A stretch of 64,000 nt of DNA from an uncultured Solirubrobacterales bacterium (lineage in GTDB: Bacteria; Actinomycetota; Thermoleophilia; Solirubrobacterales; Solirubrobacteraceae): assembly GCA_963746695.1 (NCBI GenBank), contig CAVVCP010000023.1, forward strand, positions 37,413 to 101,412, read 5' to 3'. The notes beneath the pieces were generated by a model. That model made no database searches, was not told the DNA's origin, and saw only the letters and a list, made by a program, of their open reading frames with translations. The translations under genes were made by a program, and so were the position numbers. This document shows, in pieces, positions 7,401-47,446 of the stretch; the first letter of the stretch is position 1; the number at the start of each line of letters is the position of its first letter.

Positions 7401-7412
7401 CCGAGCCGCATG

Positions 7413-7426
7413 CGAACATGTGTTCG
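7413..7426. promoter_or_regulatory. LexA (SOS) box CGAACATGTGTTCG in front of the imuB-like gene
   Basis: Perfect palindromic GAAC-N4-GTTC core matching the actinobacterial/Gram-positive SOS box TCGAAC-N4-GTTCGA. The identical 14-mer recurs at 18367 and 46101. Confidence 0.8.
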
Positions 7427-7429
7427 CTC

Positions 7430-8620
7430 ATGGTCGCCTGCGTCCTCCTCCCTCGCTTCCAGCTCACCGTCGCCTCCGAGGGTCGTGCTGAGCTGTTGCA
7501 GGCGCCCACGGCGCTCGCCCCGGAGCCGGGGGGATTGCAGCAGGTCGGCGAGGTCTCGCTGTCGGCCGAGGCATTCGGCGTCCATCCTGGGATGCGCCTG
7601 GGGGAGGCGCTGGCGCGCTGCCCCCGTCTCACGCTCATACCTCCGGATCCCGTCGGCGTCGCCGACTCCTGGGAGCGCCTGCTCGTCCGCCTGGAATCGA
7701 TGGGCGCGGCAGTCGAGCCCGAGCGGCCGGGGCTTGTCTGCTTCGACGCGCGCGGGCTGCTGCGGTTGTATGGCGGGATCGAGGGGGTGCTGGCGGCGGC
7801 CCGCCGGAGCCTGCGGGTGCCGGCTCGCTACGGAGTGGCGCCGTCACGGTTCGCGGCGGTGGCGGCGGCGACTCGCGCCCGGGTGCGCCGGCCGGTGATC
7901 GTCTCCGGGGGGCGCAAGCAGGCGGGCGAGTTCCTCGCGCCGCTGCCGGTGACGCTGTTGCGGGCCAGGCCGGCGCTGGCCGAGCTGCCCGATGCGCTCG
8001 AGCGCCTGGGCATCGGCACCCTGGGCGAGCTGGCGGCGCTGGAGCCGGCGGCGCTGGCCGATCGGTTCGGTACGGCCGGTCTCCACGCCCACGAGCTGGC
8101 GAGCGGCGGCGACGGCGCCCTGCGGCCCCGGCCGGCGAGCGAGTACCTGCGCGAGGCGCTCGAGTTGCCGGAGGCAGCGTCGGGCATGCAGCTCGAGCGC
8201 GCGCTCGGGCTGCTGATCGATCGCCTGCTGGCGCGGCGAGAGCGACGCGGCCGGACGCTGCGGGCGGTGGTGCTGTCCGCGGCGCTCGTGGAGCACGGCG
8301 GCACGTGGCGCGAGCAGGTCGTGTTTCGCGAGGCGCTGGCCGATCCGGCGAGGATGCGGCTCGCGCTCGTCCCGCGGCTGGCGCTGATGCCGGCGCCGGC
8401 GCAGCAGCTGCGGCTCGCGGTCGAGCGGTTCGGACCGCACGCGAGCGATCAAGGGGGCCTGCTGGATGATCCGGTCGCAGCCCGAACGGCACGCCTGCGC
8501 GAGGCGATCCGTCAGGCCCGTGCCGCCGCGGGTCCCGATGCCGCCCTGCGCGTGCTCGAGGTCGATCCCCAATCGCGCGTCCCCGAGCGGCGCGCGGTGC
8601 TGACCCCATTCGAGGGATGA
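7430..8620 (+). CDS. imuB: ImuB-like Y-family DNA polymerase homologue (catalytically inactive type)
   Basis: MVACVLLPRFQL reads LLPRF where DinB-type enzymes carry D-x-D-x-F, so the catalytic aspartates are absent. Y-family-like body. A LexA box lies 4 nt upstream. Start chosen at ATG 7430; the tracked ORF opens at 7385. Confidence 0.7.
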   Translation: MVACVLLPRFQLTVASEGRAELLQAPTALAPEPGGLQQVGEVSLSAEAFGVHPGMRLGEALARCPRLTLIPPDPVGVADSWERLLVRLESMGAAVEPERPGLVCFDARGLLRLYGGIEGVLAAARRSLRVPARYGVAPSRFAAVAAATRARVRRPVIVSGGRKQAGEFLAPLPVTLLRARPALAELPDALERLGIGTLGELAALEPAALADRFGTAGLHAHELASGGDGALRPRPASEYLREALELPEAASGMQLERALGLLIDRLLARRERRGRTLRAVVLSAALVEHGGTWREQVVFREALADPARMRLALVPRLALMPAPAQQLRLAVERFGPHASDQGGLLDDPVAARTARLREAIRQARAAAGPDAALRVLEVDPQSRVPERRAVLTPFEG

Positions 8621-8674
8621 GCTCTCCCCGCCCGCGGTCGCTGGCCCATCGGGTCGCCAACCCACGGCGTGGGC

Positions 8675-8716
8675 TTACACACTTATCGTGGATGATTTAC
8701 ACAGATTCTGTGATTA
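8675..8716 (+). repeat. Left copy of paired TTACACA repeat (TTACACA-N15-TTACACA-GATTCTGTGATTA)
   Basis: TTACACA at 8675-8681 and 8697-8703 (22-nt spacing) in an AT-rich stretch. It mirrors the arrangement at 9941-9980. Confidence 0.6.
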
Positions 8717-8717
8717 G

Positions 8718-8737
8718 CGTTTCCGCGGAAACGTTTT
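8718..8737 (+). terminator. Intrinsic-terminator-like palindrome downstream of imuB and the convergent ATPase gene
   Basis: Perfect 16-nt palindrome CGTTTCCGCGGAAACG (8718-8733) followed by TTTT (8734-8737). Confidence 0.55.
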
Positions 8738-8746
8738 GGTTGTCGG

Positions 8747-9922
8747 TCACCCGAGCGGGTCCAGATCCCGAAGGTATGCCTGGAACAGAGGGTCAACTAT
8801 CCGCCAGTCGGCCCTTGCCACATGCTCGAGGATGCCGGCGCGCAGCAGCAGCTTCAGCACTCGGTCCCGGATCGCCGGGGGCAGTCGCCTCGGGACGGGA
8901 TCGCCTTTGGCCAGGGCGCGAGCGATCTGGAGTGCGTTCTTGTGAAGCCTCCTGATGTGCTCGACAGTCTGCTCCATGGTCGGAAGGTCGCTGTCGAGCG
9001 CGGCGTCGTAGCCCAGCTGCACCACGTCGAGATCGATATCGCGGCGATCGAGTTGGACGGAGACGAGATGGGTTTGCTGTGCAATCCGCATCGTCGCGCG
9101 TGGATGTTGTGCTCCGAGCTCCACGATTCGCGCAAGCGCCGGCGGGTCGATCGTGCAGTCGTCTGCCGAGAAGCGCTCGAACAATCCTCGAGACCAGTCA
9201 TCGGGTGCGATCGGATGCAGCCGGTGGAAGCTCCCAAAGCCGCTGAACGCTCGATGTCCCGGTGCAAACAGATCGCGCATCACGTGCTCGAGGCTGCCAG
9301 CGAACAGGAAGCTGACACTGGGACTTCGCTGGAACGCGGCTCGCATCCGCTTGGTGACGAGGTCGGGATCACCATAGGGGCGGCGCTCGCTCCCGAGCTC
9401 CTGAAACTCATCAAAAAACAGGACGAGCCGGCGTCCGTCCGCGCGGGCGGCTCGTTCGGGCAGGTCCAGGGCCAGGTCGAGTGCGCGGGCAGGATCCTGG
9501 GCGGCCCAACCCGGGGTGATCGCGAGCTCCACTCCGTCGCCGAGCTCGCCCTTGAGCTTGAGTATGGCGGCGGCTTGTGTCGCGCTCAGGGCGGCACGAC
9601 CCAGGTCCCTGGCTCGGCGCACGATGCGCCGAATCGGAGAGCGATTGGCGATCACCGCGACGGCCAGCGCCTCTGCCAACTCGGCGGCGTCCGAGATCCG
9701 GAACAGGTCCAGCCGAGCTGTGTAGCAGCCGCTGCGCTCGACGCGGCCGAGCGCAGCGTCGCACACGCTCGTCTTGCCGGTCCGCCGAGGTCCCGCGAGG
9801 ATCAGGTTTGTCCCGTTCGCGAGCGCTGTTGCAACCTCCCGGACATCGTCGGCTCGACCGATCAGTTGACTCGCTGGAATCGGAACGTCGGATGGAAACA
9901 GGTCACCACTGGCTTGCCGCAT
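8747..9922 (-). CDS. Orphan AAA+ ATP-binding protein (Orc1/Cdc6-like Arch_ATPase/DUF234-type) with C-terminal winged-helix-like region
   Basis: Walker A GPRRTGKTS, Walker B LVLFFDEFQEL. C-terminal ...ALQIARALAKGDPVPRRLPPAIRDRVLKLLLRAGILEH. Visibly lower GC than neighbours and AT-rich flanks. Confidence 0.75.
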   Translation of the reverse strand: MRQASGDLFPSDVPIPASQLIGRADDVREVATALANGTNLILAGPRRTGKTSVCDAALGRVERSGCYTARLDLFRISDAAELAEALAVAVIANRSPIRRIVRRARDLGRAALSATQAAAILKLKGELGDGVELAITPGWAAQDPARALDLALDLPERAARADGRRLVLFFDEFQELGSERRPYGDPDLVTKRMRAAFQRSPSVSFLFAGSLEHVMRDLFAPGHRAFSGFGSFHRLHPIAPDDWSRGLFERFSADDCTIDPPALARIVELGAQHPRATMRIAQQTHLVSVQLDRRDIDLDVVQLGYDAALDSDLPTMEQTVEHIRRLHKNALQIARALAKGDPVPRRLPPAIRDRVLKLLLRAGILEHVARADWRIVDPLFQAYLRDLDPLG

Positions 9923-9940
9923 TCGCGGATCATATCATTC

Positions 9941-9980
9941 TTACACAGTTTATGTGTAATTTTTACACAAATTGTGATAA
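9941..9980 (+). repeat. Right copy of paired TTACACA repeat, including perfect inverted repeat TTACACA-N5-TGTGTAA
   Basis: TTACACA at 9941-9947 and 9963-9969 (22-nt spacing). TGTGTAA at 9953-9959. AATTGTGATAA follows the second copy. Lies in the divergent promoter between the ATPase gene and the 79-aa gene. Confidence 0.6.
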
Positions 9981-9987
9981 TCCTTCG

Positions 9988-10227
9988 ATGAGCGGGCCGC
10001 GCCGGCTGTCCGTTCCCCGCCGGGTGGCGGTCAGCGCCGAGGAGGGTCGGCCGCTGATCGTCGACGGCCGGGAGGTCGACTCGGTGCGGGAGTCGTGGCT
10101 GGTGGAAGACCGCTGGTGGACCGATCGGCCGGTTCGCCGGCACTACTGGGAGGTGGTCACGACTTGCGGCCGGGATGAGGTCGTGTTCTGCGACCTCGAG
10201 AAGGGGAGGTGGTGGCGGCAGCGCTGA
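9988..10227 (+). CDS. Small Trp/Arg-rich conserved-looking protein (79 aa), unknown function
   Basis: ATG at 9988, in frame with tracked ORF 9577..10227. Sequence ...RESWLVEDRWWTDRPVRRHYWEVV...GRWWRQR. Codon usage looks like host genes. Confidence 0.55.
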   Translation: MSGPRRLSVPRRVAVSAEEGRPLIVDGREVDSVRESWLVEDRWWTDRPVRRHYWEVVTTCGRDEVVFCDLEKGRWWRQR

Positions 10228-18363: not shown

Positions 18364-21300
18364 ATGCGAACATGTGTTCGAGTGTCGCCGCCATACGTTG
18401 AACTTCATTGCCACTCGGCCTTCTCGTTCCTCGATGGCGCCTCGCTGCCCGACGAGATCGTTCCCGCCGCGCTCGAGCTCGGGTACGAAGCGGTTGCCCT
18501 GACCGACCACAACACGGTCTCGGGGTCGATGGAGTTCGCGGTCTCCGCGCGGGCGCTCGGGCTGAGTCCGATCCACGGCGCCGAAATCGACCTCGCGCCG
18601 GGTGACTCTCCCGGGGGCCGCCACCTGACGCTGCTCGTGCAGGACGCGGGCGGCTGGTCCAACTTGTGCCGGATCCTGACCCGCGCGCATGCCCACACGC
18701 GTGAGAAGCCGGGACCTCCCTCGCAGGCGTTCGTCGAGCTCGCGGATGTTCTGGACAACGCGCAGGGGCTGATCTGCCTGAGCGGTTGCGCGCTGCGCGG
18801 GGTGCACGACGAGTTCACGCTCAGGCGGCTGCTCGATGCGTTTGGGGCAGACCGTCTCCGCGTCGAGTTGCAACGGCCATTCCTGCGTGACGATCGCGCC
18901 CGCAACCGCAGCCTCGAGCGCGTCGCGCAGCGTCTCGGCGTCCGGTGCGTCGCGACCGGGAACGTGCATGCGCACACGCGCGTTCGCGCGCCGTTGCAGG
19001 ACGCGCTGGTGGCGGTTCGCCTGCACACCACGCTCGATGCCTCAGAGCCGGAGCGGCGAGGCAACTTCAGCCATGTGCTCGCCGCGCCGGCGGCGATGGC
19101 GAGTCGCTTTTCCGAGCATCCGGAGGCGGTCGCGGAGACGGTGGCGCTCGCGGAGCGGCTGCGGTTCGATCTGAGCAGCGACCTCGGCTACAGGTATCCG
19201 GGGGCGGAGGACGCGGCGGCGATGCGCAACCTCTCGGAGCTGTGTCAGTCGCGACTCGAGGAGCGATACCAGGGCGGAGAGGAGGTGCGCGCGGGCGCCG
19301 CCGCCCGGCTCGAGCAGGAGCTGAGGATCATCGAGAGGCTCGGCCTGCCCGGGTTCTTCCTGCTCCATCACGACATGCTCGAGCTGGCCCGGGAGGTCGC
19401 GCTCGAGGTGCGCGGCGCCGGCAGCGTCCGGGGGCTGCTGCCGCCGGGGCGGGGTCGCGGCTCGAGCGTCTCCTCGATCGTCTGCTTCCTCACCGGTCTC
19501 TCGCACGTCGATCCGATCGAGAACGACCTGCTGATCGGCCGCTTCCTGAACGAGGAGCTGACCGCGCTGCCGGATATCGACCTCGACTTCCCGCGCGACA
19601 TCAGGGAGAAGCTGATCCCGCGGGTTCACGAGCGCTACGGCCACGACCGCTCGGCGCTGGTGGCGGCGTTCCCGACCTACCGCGCCCGCGGCGCGATCCG
19701 CGAGCTCGGCAAGGCGCTGGGGCTGCCGCCGGGGGAGATCGAACGGGTGGCCCGGGGCAGCGAGGGGTGGGACGCGCGCGATGTCGGCAGTGACATCGAA
19801 AACGTGTTCAGCGGCCGGCGCGAGGCGACGGGTCGATGGGCATGGCTCGCGCGGCTGGCGGCCGAGGCCCACGGGCTTCCGCGCCACCTGAGCCAGCACT
19901 CGGGCGGGATGATCGTCGCGACCCGGCCGCTGATCGACTGTTGCCCGATCGTGCCCGCGGCGATGGAGGGCCGCCAGATCGTCCAGTGGGACAAGGACTC
20001 GTGCTCGGACGCGGGGTTCCTGAAGATCGACCTGCTCGGGCTCGGGATGCTGTCGGCGGTCGAGCGGTCGGTGGAGATGATCTCTCGCACCCGGGGCGAG
20101 CAGATCGACCTGAGCCGGATCGCGTATGACGATCCGGCCACATACGAATGCATCCAGAACGCGGACACGACTGGGGTGTTCCAGATCGAGAGCCGGGCGC
20201 AGATGCAGTCGCTGTACCGGACCCGGCCCGAGAACCTCAAGGACATCACGATCCAGGTCGCGATCGTCCGGCCGGGGCCGATCCAGGGAGGCGCGGTCAA
20301 CCCGTACATCGAGCGCCGCCAGCGGCTGCGCGTCGATCCCGACTACGAGGTCCCGTACGAGCATCCGTCGCTCGAGCCCGCGCTGCGCGAGACGCTCGGC
20401 TCGATCATCTTCCAGGATCAGGTGATCGAGGTCGCGATCGCGTTCGCCGGGTTCTCGCCGGGTGAGGCCGAGGGGCTGCGGCGGGCGATGAGCCGCAAGC
20501 GCTCGGATGCCGCGATCGAGGCGTACCACCGGCGGTTCGTCGCGGGCGCCCGACGGCGGCACGGGGTCGACGAGGAGACGGCCGAGCGCGTGTTCTCGAT
20601 GGTCCGTGGCTTCTCGGGGTTCGGCTTCCCGAAGGCGCATGGCGCCGCGTTCGGCCTGCTCGCCTACCAATCGACCTGGCTGCGCGTCCACTACGGCCCC
20701 GAGTTCCTGTGCTCGCTGCTGAACGAGCAGCCGATGGGCTTCTACCCGCCCGACGCGCTCGTCCACGAGGCCCAGCGGCGGGGAATCGGGGTGCTGGCGC
20801 CCGACGTCAACGAGAGTGGCGCGAGTTGCGGGATCGAGGACTCCGGGGTCGTCCGGATCGGGCTCGGCTACGTCCGGGGCGTCACCGAGCAGGAGGTGAC
20901 CGAACTGGTCGCGGTCCGCGAGGCCGGCGGGCGGTTTCGCACGCTCGCCGATCTCGCCTCGCGCGCGAGCTCGAGCGCCGCCTCGCTGGAGATGCTCGCC
21001 TGGTCGGGGGCCTGCGACTCGCTCGTACCCGAGGCGATGGCCGGCTCGGCGCGCCGGATCGCGCTATGGCAACTCGGCGTGGCGACGCCGGGGCGAAGGG
21101 TGCCCGGCGGGGTGCAGCTGGCGCTGCCGCTGGACCTGCCGGCGCCGCCCGAGCTGCGAGCGCTCACGCCGTGGGAGTCGATGCTGGCCGACTACGGCAC
21201 GACCGGGCTGACCGCGCACGCGCATCCGATCGCGCTGCTGCGAGACCGGCTACCCGACCACACTGTGGCGAGCCGCGCTCTGGGGACGTTGCGCCACGGC

Positions 21301-21708
21301 ACGCGCGTGAGGGTGGGCGGGTTGGTGGTGGCGCGGCAGCGCCCGGGCACGGCGAACGGGATCGTGTTCGTGCTGCTCGAGGACGAGTACGGGACGATCA
21401 ACCTGATCGTCCCCGCGCCGGTCTATGAGCGCCACCGGCTGACGGTGAGAACCGAGCCGTTGATGCTGGCCGAGGGCAAGCTCGAGTGCCTGCCGGCGGC
21501 CGGCGGCGCGATCAACGTGCTGGTCGATCGGGTCCAGCCGATTGCGGCGCCCGACCATCTGGTCGCCGAGGTCAAGGACTTCTCGATGCTCGACGAGCAG
21601 GTGCGGCGGGGGCTGGCCGAACAGCGAACGTCCCGCGAGACGGATGCGGAGGATTTCCGCGCGGTCGCTCCGCCGGTGATGAGCTTTGCCTCGGGGCGGC
21701 GGCGATGA
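18364..21708 (+). CDS. dnaE2: Error-prone DNA polymerase III alpha-like subunit DnaE2
   Basis: PHP domain YVELHCHSAFSFLDGAS. About 1100 aa Pol III alpha architecture without a tau/OB extension. LexA box at the start. Confidence 0.9.
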   Translation: MRTCVRVSPPYVELHCHSAFSFLDGASLPDEIVPAALELGYEAVALTDHNTVSGSMEFAVSARALGLSPIHGAEIDLAPGDSPGGRHLTLLVQDAGGWSNLCRILTRAHAHTREKPGPPSQAFVELADVLDNAQGLICLSGCALRGVHDEFTLRRLLDAFGADRLRVELQRPFLRDDRARNRSLERVAQRLGVRCVATGNVHAHTRVRAPLQDALVAVRLHTTLDASEPERRGNFSHVLAAPAAMASRFSEHPEAVAETVALAERLRFDLSSDLGYRYPGAEDAAAMRNLSELCQSRLEERYQGGEEVRAGAAARLEQELRIIERLGLPGFFLLHHDMLELAREVALEVRGAGSVRGLLPPGRGRGSSVSSIVCFLTGLSHVDPIENDLLIGRFLNEELTALPDIDLDFPRDIREKLIPRVHERYGHDRSALVAAFPTYRARGAIRELGKALGLPPGEIERVARGSEGWDARDVGSDIENVFSGRREATGRWAWLARLAAEAHGLPRHLSQHSGGMIVATRPLIDCCPIVPAAMEGRQIVQWDKDSCSDAGFLKIDLLGLGMLSAVERSVEMISRTRGEQIDLSRIAYDDPATYECIQNADTTGVFQIESRAQMQSLYRTRPENLKDITIQVAIVRPGPIQGGAVNPYIERRQRLRVDPDYEVPYEHPSLEPALRETLGSIIFQDQVIEVAIAFAGFSPGEAEGLRRAMSRKRSDAAIEAYHRRFVAGARRRHGVDEETAERVFSMVRGFSGFGFPKAHGAAFGLLAYQSTWLRVHYGPEFLCSLLNEQPMGFYPPDALVHEAQRRGIGVLAPDVNESGASCGIEDSGVVRIGLGYVRGVTEQEVTELVAVREAGGRFRTLADLASRASSSAASLEMLAWSGACDSLVPEAMAGSARRIALWQLGVATPGRRVPGGVQLALPLDLPAPPELRALTPWESMLADYGTTGLTAHAHPIALLRDRLPDHTVASRALGTLRHGTRVRVGGLVVARQRPGTANGIVFVLLEDEYGTINLIVPAPVYERHRLTVRTEPLMLAEGKLECLPAAGGAINVLVDRVQPIAAPDHLVAEVKDFSMLDEQVRRGLAEQRTSRETDAEDFRAVAPPVMSFASGRRR
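18367..18380. promoter_or_regulatory. LexA (SOS) box CGAACATGTGTTCG at the dnaE2 start
   Basis: Same 14-mer as at 7413 (17-nt identity ATGCGAACATGTGTTCG). It overlaps ATG 18364. An alternative GTG start lies at 18382. Confidence 0.8.
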
Positions 21709-45998: not shown

Positions 45999-46099
45999 GG
46001 GTTGCAGGTTGTGTGCGGCTGCTCGTTCGCCTTCGGGGCCGGACCGGCACGTTCCGCCCGCAAACGCGGCCTTTTCCGTCCGACCGGGGGCGTAGTCTA

Positions 46100-46114
46100 T
46101 CGAACATGTGTTCG
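46100..46114. promoter_or_regulatory. LexA (SOS) box TCGAACATGTGTTCG overlapping the HNH gene start codon
   Basis: Third exact copy of CGAACATGTGTTCG. The central ATG (46106) is the in-frame start of the DUF222-HNH gene. Confidence 0.75.
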
Positions 46115-47446
46115 GGTAGATCAAATAGGCGGGACAACGAACCGTCGCCGGGGCCGGGGCCGGGGCCGGGGCCGGCGTCGCTCGAGACGCTCGAGCGGGA
46201 GATCTGCGAGCTGGCTGCGCACATCGCGGTGGCGACGTGCCGGTGGCTCGGGCTGGTGGCCGAATTCGACGACCGGCGCGGCTGGGCCGAGTGGGGCGTG
46301 AAATCGTGCGCGCACTGGCTTTCGTGGCGATGTTCGGTCGCGCTGGGAGCGGCCCGCGAGCGGGTCCGGGTCGCGCATCGGCTGCAGGAACTGCCGCTGG
46401 TGCGGGAGGCGTTCTCGCGAGGGGAGCTGTCGTACTGCAAAGTTCGCGCGCTCACGCGGGCGGCGACGCCGGCGACCGAGGCCGGGCTCCTCGAGATCGC
46501 GCGACACGCGACCGGGGCGCAGCTCGAGAAGCTGATCCGGTGCTACTCGAGCGCGCTGTCGGCGACGCTCGGCGCCGCCCAACGGGCGCAGGAGCTCCGG
46601 TACCTCAGATGGAGCTGGAACGACGACGGTTCGGTGCATCTCGAGGGCCGGCTTCCAGCGGATGACGGCGGGCTCGTGATCAACGCGTTGCAGGCCGTGC
46701 AGGCCGAGCCCGGAGAGCACGAGGCATCGTTGCCCTCCCCGGTCGCGGCGTGTCGCGCAGATGCGCTGGTGGCGCTGGCGAGGACGGCGATGGCCGCTAA
46801 CGCGGATGGTGCCGGTGGCGGCGGTGGCGGGAGGCCGGATCCGTGCGAGCTCGTGGTCCACGTCGACGCCGCGACGCTCGCGGCCGACGAGGTGGTCGAG
46901 CGGGCGGAGCTGGCGGATGGCCCGGCGGTGGCTCCCGAGACTGTGCGCCGGCTGGGGTGTGATGCGGCAGTCGTCCGGATCATCGAGCGCGACGGGGAGC
47001 CGCTTTCGGTCGGCCGGCGAACGCGGACGATCCCGCCGGCGCTGCGGCGGGCGCTGCGAAGCCGGGACGGCGCGTGCCGGTTCCCCGGGTGTACTCACGA
47101 GCGGTTCCTGCACGCGCACCACATCCAGCACTGGGCGCGGGGCGGTGCGACGGCACTGGAGAACCTGGTCCAGCTGTGCTCGTACCACCATCGGCTGGTG
47201 CACGAGGGCGGGTTCCGGGTCGAGCGAGAGGGTCGTGGCGGGGTGCGGTTCCGGCGGCCGGACGGGCGGGCGGTGCCGGCAGCGCCGGGAAGCAGGCCGG
47301 CGCGAGGAGCGGCGCTGGGCGAGCAGCACCGGGCGCGGGGGATCGCGGTGGATGCGAACACGTGCCGGCCGCTATCCGCCGGTGATCGACTGGATTACGG
47401 ACTGGCGCTCGATGCGCTGTTGCCGCGGGCGCTCGCTGGGGGGTGA
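46106..47446 (+). CDS. DUF222 domain-containing HNH endonuclease (actinobacterial 13E12-repeat-like family)
   Basis: LEREICELAAHIAVATCRWLGLVAEFDDRRGW...SCAHWLSWRCS (DUF222). C-terminal RDGACRFPGCTH...HAHHIQHWARGG.T.LENLVQLCSYHHRLVHEGG (HNH). Confidence 0.85.
   Translation: MCSGRSNRRDNEPSPGPGPGPGPASLETLEREICELAAHIAVATCRWLGLVAEFDDRRGWAEWGVKSCAHWLSWRCSVALGAARERVRVAHRLQELPLVREAFSRGELSYCKVRALTRAATPATEAGLLEIARHATGAQLEKLIRCYSSALSATLGAAQRAQELRYLRWSWNDDGSVHLEGRLPADDGGLVINALQAVQAEPGEHEASLPSPVAACRADALVALARTAMAANADGAGGGGGGRPDPCELVVHVDAATLAADEVVERAELADGPAVAPETVRRLGCDAAVVRIIERDGEPLSVGRRTRTIPPALRRALRSRDGACRFPGCTHERFLHAHHIQHWARGGATALENLVQLCSYHHRLVHEGGFRVEREGRGGVRFRRPDGRAVPAAPGSRPARGAALGEQHRARGIAVDANTCRPLSAGDRLDYGLALDALLPRALAGG

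Follow-up and report, generated by a model that had tools for sequence, protein, structure and literature searches.

A palindrome-flanked ATPase gene behind imuB

The stretch of DNA analysed here over its full 64,000 nucleotides (the window) comes from an uncultured Solirubrobacterales bacterium. Between an imuB-like polymerase gene and the gene for a tryptophan-rich protein of 79 amino acids (aa), it carries an antisense gene for an AAA+ ATPase that has a pair of short palindromes on either side. We refer to site pair, gene and site pair together as the cassette. The features that lie between the two host genes are, in the coordinates of the window:

8675 to 8693: far-side palindrome, outer copy, TTACACACTTATCGTGGAT; 10/12 half-site positions match; an orthologous site is found in all relatives
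8697 to 8715: far-side palindrome, inner copy, TTACACAGATTCTGTGATT; 9/12 half-site positions match; starts 22 bp past the outer copy
8716 to 8740, forward strand: terminator-like hairpin AGCGTTTCCGCGGAAACGTT, then TTGG, from a terminator scan; faces transcription coming from imuB
8747 to 9922, reverse strand: gene for the AAA+ ATPase, 391 aa, with lid and C-terminal winged helix; Walker A GPRRTGKT, Walker B FFDEF
9929 to 9958, reverse strand: predicted sigma-70-type promoter of the ATPase gene; TACACA, 18-nt spacer, TATGAT, 6 nt to the ATG; leaderless, no Shine-Dalgarno sequence
9941 to 9959: promoter-proximal palindrome TTACACAGTTTATGTGTAA; 12/12 half-site positions match; starts 37 nt before the ATPase ATG
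9963 to 9979: second promoter-side palindrome, TTACACA-aat-TGTGATA; spacer 2 bp shorter, one degenerate arm
9973 to 9981, forward strand: extended -10-like element TGTGATAAT, found by eye, 6 nt upstream of the 79-aa start codon; leaderless, no Shine-Dalgarno sequence

The heptamer TTACACA occurred five times in the window, at 8675 (+), 8697 (+), 9941 (+), 9953 (-) and 9963 (+), whereas 0.29 copies are expected by chance in 64 kb, and five or more copies were found in 0 of 100 shuffles. The spaced pattern TTACACA-N15-TTACACA matched at 8675-8703 and 9941-9969 only, even with two mismatches tolerated (0.02 matches expected). An earlier inspection of the same DNA without database searches (the sequence-only reading) had described paired copies in one orientation with a 22-nt spacing on both sides of the gene, and positions, orientation and spacing were indeed borne out by the motif count and the spaced-pattern scan. 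The tails that it had described after the second copies (GATTCTGTGATTA in the left flank, AATTGTGATAA in the right flank) read as stated, and TTACACA-N5-TGTGTAA at 9941-9959 is, as it had claimed, a perfect palindrome. When aligned to each other, the left and right flanks were 73% identical across 37 nt. As far as sequence can define it, the functional unit is not the direct 7-mer repeat but a palindrome of 19 bp, TTACAC-N7-GTGTAA, of which the 7-mer forms one half; the palindromes occur as tandem pairs with a period of 22 bp. In the window, three of the four palindromes (8675-8693, 8697-8715 and 9963-9979) have one degenerate arm, and only 9941-9959 is perfect.

The flanks had also been called AT-rich and the ATPase gene less GC-rich than its neighbours. 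Sliding-window analysis placed the lowest-GC 60-nt stretch of the window (0.27) in the right flank and the fourth lowest (0.42) in the left flank. The ATPase gene has a GC content of 0.660 and a GC content at third codon positions (GC3) of 0.747, compared to a GC3 of 0.87 to 0.93 in the neighbouring genes; 55 long open reading frames (ORFs), pre-selected for a GC3 of >0.78, had a mean of 0.873 (standard deviation, 0.049). Both descriptions thus agree with the computed values.

The sites were then compared across 80 species-level loci that contain the 79-aa gene, taken from Solirubrobacterales-type metagenome-assembled genomes, and four long contigs found via ATPase homologues. All 22 complete ATPase orthologues (71 to 100% protein identity) had palindromes on both sides of the gene. 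The proximal upstream palindrome started 37 to 43 nt before the ATG in 22/22 orthologues and nearly always matched at 12/12 half-site positions. A second upstream palindrome, 22 bp further out, was recognisable in 17 of these loci, and downstream of the gene, one or two palindromes lay 1 to 60 nt past the stop codon. The half-site positions had an information content of 1.7 to 2.0 bits, whereas most spacer positions stayed well below 1 bit and none exceeded about 1.0. Since half-sites are information-rich and spacers are variable, the palindrome has the footprint of a protein-binding site.

The sequence-only reading had itself pointed out that the repeats might prove common in intergenic regions or that relatives might carry the ATPase without them. 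Across some 1.06 Mb of Solirubrobacterales sequence, every palindrome with no more than one mismatch lay next to the ATPase gene or was a remnant at this locus, and none of the 22 complete orthologues lacked the sites. Relatives without the cassette had no palindrome before the 79-aa gene. Intergenic DNA of high-GC genomes is often AT-rich, and the repeats could in principle be AT-rich promoter sequence that arose by chance and has no specific function. However, neither the number of copies nor the paired pattern fits the chance expectations given above, and the sites were kept in 22 orthologous loci while the spacers varied; this explanation is so improbable that we consider it excluded.

The promoter-side pair coincides with predicted promoter elements. 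The predicted ATPase promoter was the only promoter-like match in 8500-10100 (0.1 expected), and its -35 box lies inside the palindrome 9941-9959; the palindrome 9963-9979 overlaps the -10 region of the 79-aa gene. On the far side, the hairpin AGCGTTTCCGCGGAAACGTT lies between the palindromes and the nearby 3' end of the antisense ATPase gene, and a counterpart was seen by eye in the closest relatives.

The ATPase and the half-sites of its homologues

The ATPase matched the Pfam family AAA_16 with 36.1 bits (cut-off, 32.6). Its match to ATPase_2 (PF01637) was below the cut-off (17.2 bits; cut-off, 33.2), nSTAND1 was weak as well, and an NCBIfam scan gave no match. Among 1.8 billion cluster representatives, 1,706 relatives were found, many of them full-length with 370 to 400 aa and 26 to 62% identity, and 62 of 69 homologues matched PF01637 with an E value of <0.01 (best E value, 5e-16). 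The profile matches indicate a divergent subfamily in the ATPase_2 superfamily. Furthermore, the family profile matched the Protein Data Bank (PDB) entries 2FNA over the full length (E 3.6e-13) and 2QEN (E 5.4e-12), and the C termini of some family members matched the winged-helix Pfam families AbiEi_4, TrmB, GntR and ScpB. A first AlphaFold2 (AF2) model, built on an alignment of sequences at least 77% identical, had a predicted local distance difference test (pLDDT) score of only 56 and was replaced by one on a deeper alignment, which reached a pLDDT of 95.9 and a predicted template modelling (pTM) score of 0.92. With this model, Foldseek listed 2QEN first (template modelling [TM] scores, 0.70/0.77) and then 2FNA (0.64/0.70), followed by archaeal Orc1/Cdc6 proteins, including the DNA-bound structure 2QBY, with TM scores of about 0.5 to 0.57. 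In the model, the ATPase has a three-domain fold of AAA+ core, lid and winged helix. Across the 69 homologues, the P-loop residues G49 and K50 and the Walker B residue D171 were invariant and E172 was nearly so, within the motifs GPRRTGKT and hhhhDE.

A second conserved element was seen at the N terminus. The motif LFP(T/S)DxP (residues 8 to 14) is invariant or nearly so in homologues down to 25% identity; F9 and P10 are conserved in 69 sequences, and the motif was modelled with a pLDDT of >95. In our reading, it does not fit a beta-clamp-binding motif.

Several class assignments were considered. The sequence-only reading had proposed an Orc1/Cdc6-like Arch_ATPase/DUF234 protein. The Arch_ATPase (ATPase_2) part and, at the level of fold or superfamily, the likeness to Orc1/Cdc6 stood, but the DUF234 domain did not: PF03008 was not among the Pfam families listed for 34 close or 69 distant homologues, and the window ATPase did not match it either. 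Likewise, no Cdc6/ORC Pfam family was listed for the window ATPase or the 69 homologues, and PDB sequence matches of the family profile to ORC4 were weak and confined to the P-loop region. The resemblance to Orc1/Cdc6 initiators is thus one of fold only. A STAND or MalT/LAL-type regulator, in which long sensor repeats and an effector or helix-turn-helix domain follow the NTPase, was rejected despite the AAA_16 match; at 391 aa the protein is short, it lacks a repeat domain, and its fold resembles that of ATPase_2 or Orc proteins. The proposal of a defence module found no support either: the best PADLOC matches were fragments covering only the P-loop (E 7e-4 to 0.05).

We sampled the contexts of seven distant homologues, none of which is an imuB locus, and found the following arrangements (percentages are identities to the window ATPase):

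L224, 62%: GATCAC-N7-GTGATA and one extra half-site 3 nt off
L219, 49%: ACTAGC-N7-GCTAGT, N3, ACTAGC-N7-GCTAGT, upstream and downstream
L220, 45%: 22-bp direct repeat, 2.6 copies, upstream
L225, 43%: TATCAC-N6-GTGATA, N4, repeated with a 22-bp period, upstream
L221, 40%: GGAGTAC words, loosely arranged, both flanks
L222, 33%: TATTAC-N7-GTAATA, twice, upstream
L223, 28%: GGGGAC-N7-GTCCC[AT], twice, upstream

The 22-bp period was preserved in the homologues with 49%, 45%, 43%, 33% and 28% identity. In L219, L222 and L223, the palindromes were found nowhere else in the fetched locus, save for one match with two mismatches in L222. In the C-terminal helix, the stretch that directly precedes the invariant R354, a presumed recognition region, varied among homologues with different half-sites. 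Judged from these loci, the 22-bp phasing is a hallmark of the family, and the half-site changes with the protein. Since this co-variation is seen in unrelated loci, it argues that the ATPase itself reads the sites, and very probably it is both their binder and its own regulator.

The sites could instead belong to a regulator encoded elsewhere, for example one of a second DNA-damage regulon that controls the 79-aa gene product, with the ATPase as a passenger. We consider this quite unlikely. It would account for the sites that survive at four loci from which the ATPase is missing (L048, L056, L013 and L054), and the site scan of the source genome covered 64 kb. On the other hand, where the ATPase has another neighbour (L042 and L118, see below), the sites have gone with it, relatives without the cassette have no site before the 79-aa gene, and the distant homologues have different phased sites of their own. 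One further occurrence of the half-site was weighed here. About 50 high-GC metagenome contigs (including L088, L094 to L096, L099, L101, L108, L115, L123, L167 and L179) carry TTACAC-N7-GTGTAA-N3-TTACAC with GC-rich spacers and without an ATPase homologue nearby, next to mreB, a ferrochelatase gene, or genes for an OmpA-like lipoprotein and an NtrC-type regulator. This triple half-site may be a lineage-wide regulatory motif. Where checked, it belongs to another phylum: of the two groups checked, the one next to mreB is Rokubacteria-like and the one with OmpA/NtrC genes comes from diderm bacteria. Since these groups are not actinobacterial, they are not targets in the genome studied here.

A further candidate was an initiator-plus-iteron module, in which an Orc1/Cdc6-like initiator, bracketed by phased sites and an AT-rich stretch, would form a relic or an accessory element for replication or copy control. 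Orc1/Cdc6 proteins are among the best fold matches, the sites have a 22-bp phasing, direct repeats of 22 bp are found beside one homologue, no part of the window is as AT-rich as the promoter-side flank, and a gene bracketed by sites recalls the plasmids P1 and F and archaeal orc1-oriC regions. Nevertheless, the unit is chromosomal, confined to a single locus and has long co-diverged with its host. Each side has no more than two sites, the AT-rich stretch is made up almost wholly of these sites and of promoter boxes, other replication genes are lacking, and the closest structural relatives are ATPase_2 proteins without a known role rather than bona fide initiators. An initiator module is therefore very improbable.

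The host locus and the history of the cassette

The genes around the cassette appear to belong to an SOS-controlled mutagenesis system, of which the window contains:

7413 to 7426, forward strand: LexA box CGAACATGTGTTCG, canonical actinobacterial (Cheo-type), exact match, just before the imuB-like gene
7430 to 8620, forward strand: gene for the imuB-like Y-family polymerase, 396 aa (Pfam IMS PF00817, E 1.9e-8; gene call in L001; conserved synteny)
9988 to 10227, forward strand: gene for the 79-aa tryptophan-rich protein; its start overlaps the imuB stop codon in most relatives
18364 to 21708, forward strand: dnaE2, error-prone polymerase (NCBIfam NF004225, E 2.9e-287), with its own LexA box at 18367-18380

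The imuB-like protein appears by eye to lack the catalytic aspartates in its N-terminal motif MVACVLLPRFQL and is the counterpart of the N-terminal part of ImuB. ImuB-C has been described as a separate small, beta-rich protein with a conserved C-terminal tryptophan and basic residues, encoded beside an inactive Y-family polymerase and DnaE2 (PMC3765255; PMC6511836, section 17). Based on context, composition and fit to this description, the 79-aa protein is probably the standalone ImuB-C domain of a split ImuB. Its family has more than 1,200 homologues, of which the best 120 listed are 74 to 89% identical, and W75, W76 and R74 are invariant. No Pfam or NCBIfam model covers the protein, a PDB profile search with the family gave no match, and neither did a search for canonical ImuB on plasmids by tblastn with the 79-aa protein and ImuB. 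In several JGI records the protein bears the name 'CO dehydrogenase/acetyl-CoA synthase delta subunit', apparently a mis-annotation. The third mutasome component, dnaE2, lies 8 kb off, and no imuA was seen in the window or in the fetched loci.

The LexA box CGAACATGTGTTCG is found in identical form at 18367-18380 (dnaE2) and at 46101-46114. At imuB and dnaE2, the boxes share the 17-mer ATGCGAACATGTGTTCG (7410-7426 and 18364-18380) at or overlapping the start codon. The third box lies inside the 5' end of the mechanically called ORF of a DUF222/HNH endonuclease gene (46013-47446) and thus probably just upstream of the true start. The three boxes suggest that a small SOS regulon is visible in the window. 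The TTACAC sites themselves were considered as LexA boxes, but this was rejected; the LexA box is an unrelated sequence and located elsewhere.

The cassette is an optional insert into this locus. The ATPase was absent from 64 of 73 genome loci with a complete imuB; in 20 of these 64, the imuB and 79-aa ORFs overlap (ATGA/GTGA), in 20 more they are 0 to 30 bp apart, and the median gap is 14 bp. The synteny that the sequence-only reading had asked about for relatives without the ATPase, with imuB directly followed by the 79-aa gene, was thus found, but without the single repeat copy that it had mentioned. The ATPase was present between the two genes in 8 of 80 genomes, in the window and in four further contigs. 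In L042 and in two metagenome loci (L118 and L156), the ATPase gene is placed immediately past the 79-aa gene, bracketed by palindromes and divergent from a NUDIX gene. The gene order there (L042 6400-7700, L118 3443-5748, L156) is imuB, 79-aa gene, SRPBCC (Polyketide_cyc2) gene, site pair, ATPase gene, site pair, NUDIX hydrolase gene.

The junction between imuB and the 79-aa gene is also a hotspot for GC-rich tandem repeats. In the cassette-bearing relatives L004 (5880-6000), L011 (5850-6000) and L025 (5880-5990), repeat units of about 18 to 21 bp separate the operator pair from the start of the 79-aa gene, and tandem duplications of the imuB 3' end or 400 bp of repeats lie upstream of the 79-aa gene in L034, L061 and L042.

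Presence of the ATPase was scattered on a neighbour-joining tree of ImuB and the 79-aa protein. Pairwise distances between ATPases correlated with those between the ImuB proteins of the same loci (r = 0.93; a value not reached in any of 2000 Mantel permutations). Since ATPase divergence tracks ImuB divergence, the cassette is not a recent import. Either it is a long-term resident whose loss has been frequent, or its presence and absence are an ancient polymorphism that homologous recombination has reshuffled. One clade contains a decay series, with complete cassettes in L069 and L086, a shell in L048 and a single site pair in L056; L013 and L054 are further solo remnants. In the shell (L048 5839-5994), the two operator pairs have stayed nearly intact; they lie some 75 bp from each other, and only the last ~8 codons of the ATPase gene (LRSLDPLL*) are left between them. 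Taken together, site pair, gene and site pair are an old, optional, self-contained unit.

Traces of insertion were looked for at the junctions. The translation MSSPRPRSLAHRVA of 8617-8674 resembled a decayed 5' end of the 79-aa gene, but alignment against shuffles gave p values of 0.1 to 0.8 (11 loci), and this candidate was rejected. The 6 to 7 nt ATGA(G/C)C common to both junctions overlap the imuB stop codon and are too short for a target-site duplication; no systematic search for others was made. As the sequence-only reading had noted, no integrase or transposase accompanies the gene: none was among the Pfam calls within about 10 kb on either side. A phage origin was rejected, with no relatives of the ATPase in IMG/VR; 12 viral contigs contained the DNA pattern, and we take these, themselves uninspected, as chance matches because their GC content is 34 to 46%. 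The region gave no Rfam match to a structured RNA at E values up to 1.

An acquired cassette, one of the two explanations offered by the sequence-only reading, holds in part: the insert is optional and has a low GC3, but it was not acquired recently. Its idea of att-like or terminal remnants does not hold; the repeats are conserved palindromes rather than integration scars, and no recombinase is present. A related possibility is that the palindrome pairs are not transcriptional operators but mark the ends of a small cassette that is mobile or was inserted site-specifically; they would be recognised for its mobilisation, and the ATPase would be its cargo or helper. Sites bracket the gene on both sides, presence on the host tree is patchy, GC3 is low, the deletion shells and solo sites resemble the decay of miniature inverted-repeat transposable elements (MITEs) or solo long terminal repeats (LTRs), and in L042 and L118 the unit is on the other side of the 79-aa gene. 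However, the unit was always at the imuB locus (13/13 genome or long-contig cases and about 10 metagenome cases), and the correlation with ImuB, the lack of a transposase, an integrase or IMG/VR relatives, and a left junction that is not a target duplicate all speak against mobility. So do the upstream site, which is locked to the promoter position, and the four distant homologues that have sites upstream only. We regard a mobile cassette as unlikely, and membership among transposable or integrated cassettes was rejected for want of a recombinase, given one locus throughout, the junction and the co-divergence with the host.

Proposed function and comparison with known systems

Taking these data together, the window ATPase is probably a sequence-specific DNA-binding AAA+ ATPase with an archaeal-type ATPase_2/Orc1-Cdc6-like fold and with TTACAC-N7-GTGTAA as its cognate site. 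The second explanation of the sequence-only reading, an operator set for the ATPase, is thus favoured by the strict co-occurrence of sites and gene, their fixed distance over a predicted promoter and the half-site that changes with the protein, all read from the DNA.

From the sites, their distribution, the fold and the co-variation we infer the following scheme. Each palindrome would take one dimer via the C-terminal winged helices, and two palindromes 22 bp apart, that is, two helical turns, would place two dimers on the same face of the DNA. The promoter-side pair (9941-9979) would cover two predicted promoter elements, the -35 box for the ATPase and the -10 region for the divergent 79-aa gene. 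Binding at the -35 box would repress the leaderless transcript of the ATPase gene itself (autorepression), and the same complex probably gates the 79-aa gene in this strain, probably in a nucleotide-dependent manner: by analogy with the DnaA/Orc clade, the AAA+ domain may make binding or bridging depend on the nucleotide state. Since the far-side pair (8675-8715) has no promoter to control, it may act as a roadblock or a loop anchor. Most likely it would be a roadblock or insulator against SOS-induced imuB transcription, which would otherwise run antisense through the ATPase gene; alternatively, a loop of 1.27 kb could close over the gene with this pair as its second anchor, as with lambda OL-OR. 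In L219, the downstream pair is likewise placed between convergent genes.

Several observations weigh against parts of this scheme. The promoters are predictions, and the extended -10 element TGTGATAAT of the 79-aa gene is found in the window only and is not conserved in relatives; in three close relatives, 100 to 150 bp of GC-rich repeats part the sites from the 79-aa gene. In L042 and L118, the divergent partner is the NUDIX gene and not the 79-aa gene, and therefore control of ImuB-C is not a general property. Near-perfect site arms survive without the ATPase in the L048 shell and the L056 solo pair, which implies either a very recent loss or a binder that is encoded elsewhere and acts in trans. 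A downstream pair is clear in two subfamilies only, four distant homologues show upstream sites only, and in L221 (40% identity) the words on both flanks are only loosely arranged; since most distant homologues lack a clear downstream pair, the bracket may not be essential to the family. Finally, the co-variation rests on seven distant contexts.

For the mutasome, the consequences would be as follows. Where the cassette is lacking, ImuB-N and the 79-aa protein would be coupled in translation, with a single LexA box ahead of both. Where it is present, a 1.37-kb antisense gene, a terminator and an operator-covered promoter would set the 79-aa gene apart, which may then need a second signal; ImuB-C would then no longer depend on the LexA-controlled imuB promoter alone. 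Given the NUDIX arrangement and the unrelated contexts of distant homologues, this effect is a local consequence and not the purpose of the family. The role of mutasome regulator suggested by the sequence-only reading shrinks to, at most, a local side effect.

A wider proposal, which we put forward as speculation and hold to be doubtful, is that ATPase_2-type AAA+/winged-helix proteins are widespread nucleotide-gated switches that bridge or insulate DNA via their own 22-bp-phased operators beside or around their genes, and that in Solirubrobacterales such a switch, wedged between the halves of a split ImuB, forms an AND gate on mutagenesis. If so, the error-prone polymerase complex would need two independent signals to assemble: LexA would have to be cleaved for ImuB-N and DnaE2, and the ATPase would have to be released for ImuB-C. 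The natural presence/absence polymorphism uncouples ImuB-C from its SOS-controlled partner and could add a second layer of control on error-prone DNA synthesis in common soil actinobacteria. The sites would also give a first functional clue for ATPase_2/Arch_ATPase proteins, of which this branch alone has about 1,700 cluster representatives and for which no function was found in the literature. With cognate sites given by the genome, a 22-bp geometry and natural specificity variants, the family is directly testable. Even if the ATPase were only a local autoregulator, the analysis puts two sets of annotations right, namely 'hypothetical' and 'ScpB' for the ATPase and 'CO dehydrogenase delta subunit' for the 79-aa protein.

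The host locus resembles the split ImuB mutasome operons described before (PMC6511836; PMC3765255) in its apparently inactive Y-family gene with a LexA box, in the small tryptophan-rich gene that overlaps the stop codon and encodes a conserved C-terminal tryptophan, and in dnaE2 with its own LexA box. An AAA+ gene between the two ImuB halves is absent from the descriptions in PMC6511836 (Timinskas and Venclovas, 2019) and PMC3765255 (Aravind et al., 2013).

Among AAA+ proteins, archaeal Orc1/Cdc6 (2QBY, 1W5T, 1FNN) likewise combines an AAA+ core with a winged helix that reads dyad-symmetric boxes beside its own gene. In contrast to these proteins, the window ATPase is not a member of the family by sequence, is bacterial, lies at a locus that is not an origin and has two sites per side. 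The closest matches, SSO1545 (2FNA) and PABY2304 (2QEN), share the build of AAA+ core, lid and C-terminal winged helix. Crystal structures of this type have been available since 2006 to 2008, and the literature on DUF234, PF01637, 2FNA and 2QEN yielded no function or DNA target; unlike 2FNA and 2QEN, the window ATPase has a cognate site that can be read from the genome.

The arrangement of gene and sites has its nearest parallels in phage and plasmid systems. The lambda CI gene lies between two tandem sets of palindromic operators, one of which covers divergent promoters including its own, and pairs of dimers can bridge the sets by looping. The window ATPase gene likewise lies between two putative operator sets, one of them over predicted divergent promoters. 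However, CI is a small helix-turn-helix protein without a nucleoside triphosphatase domain, and its far operator controls PL, whereas the far pair in the window lies between convergent genes and any looping there would be our inference. In the plasmids P1 (incC-repA-incA) and F (ori2-repE-incC), the gene for a winged-helix protein is bracketed by phased arrays with a period of about 19 to 22 bp, and the upstream array overlaps the promoter of that gene and serves autorepression. This bracket architecture is like that of the ATPase gene and its site pairs. The Rep proteins are not AAA+ proteins, though, and their iterons form longer direct-repeat arrays at plasmid origins, whereas the unit in the window is a stable chromosomal insert.

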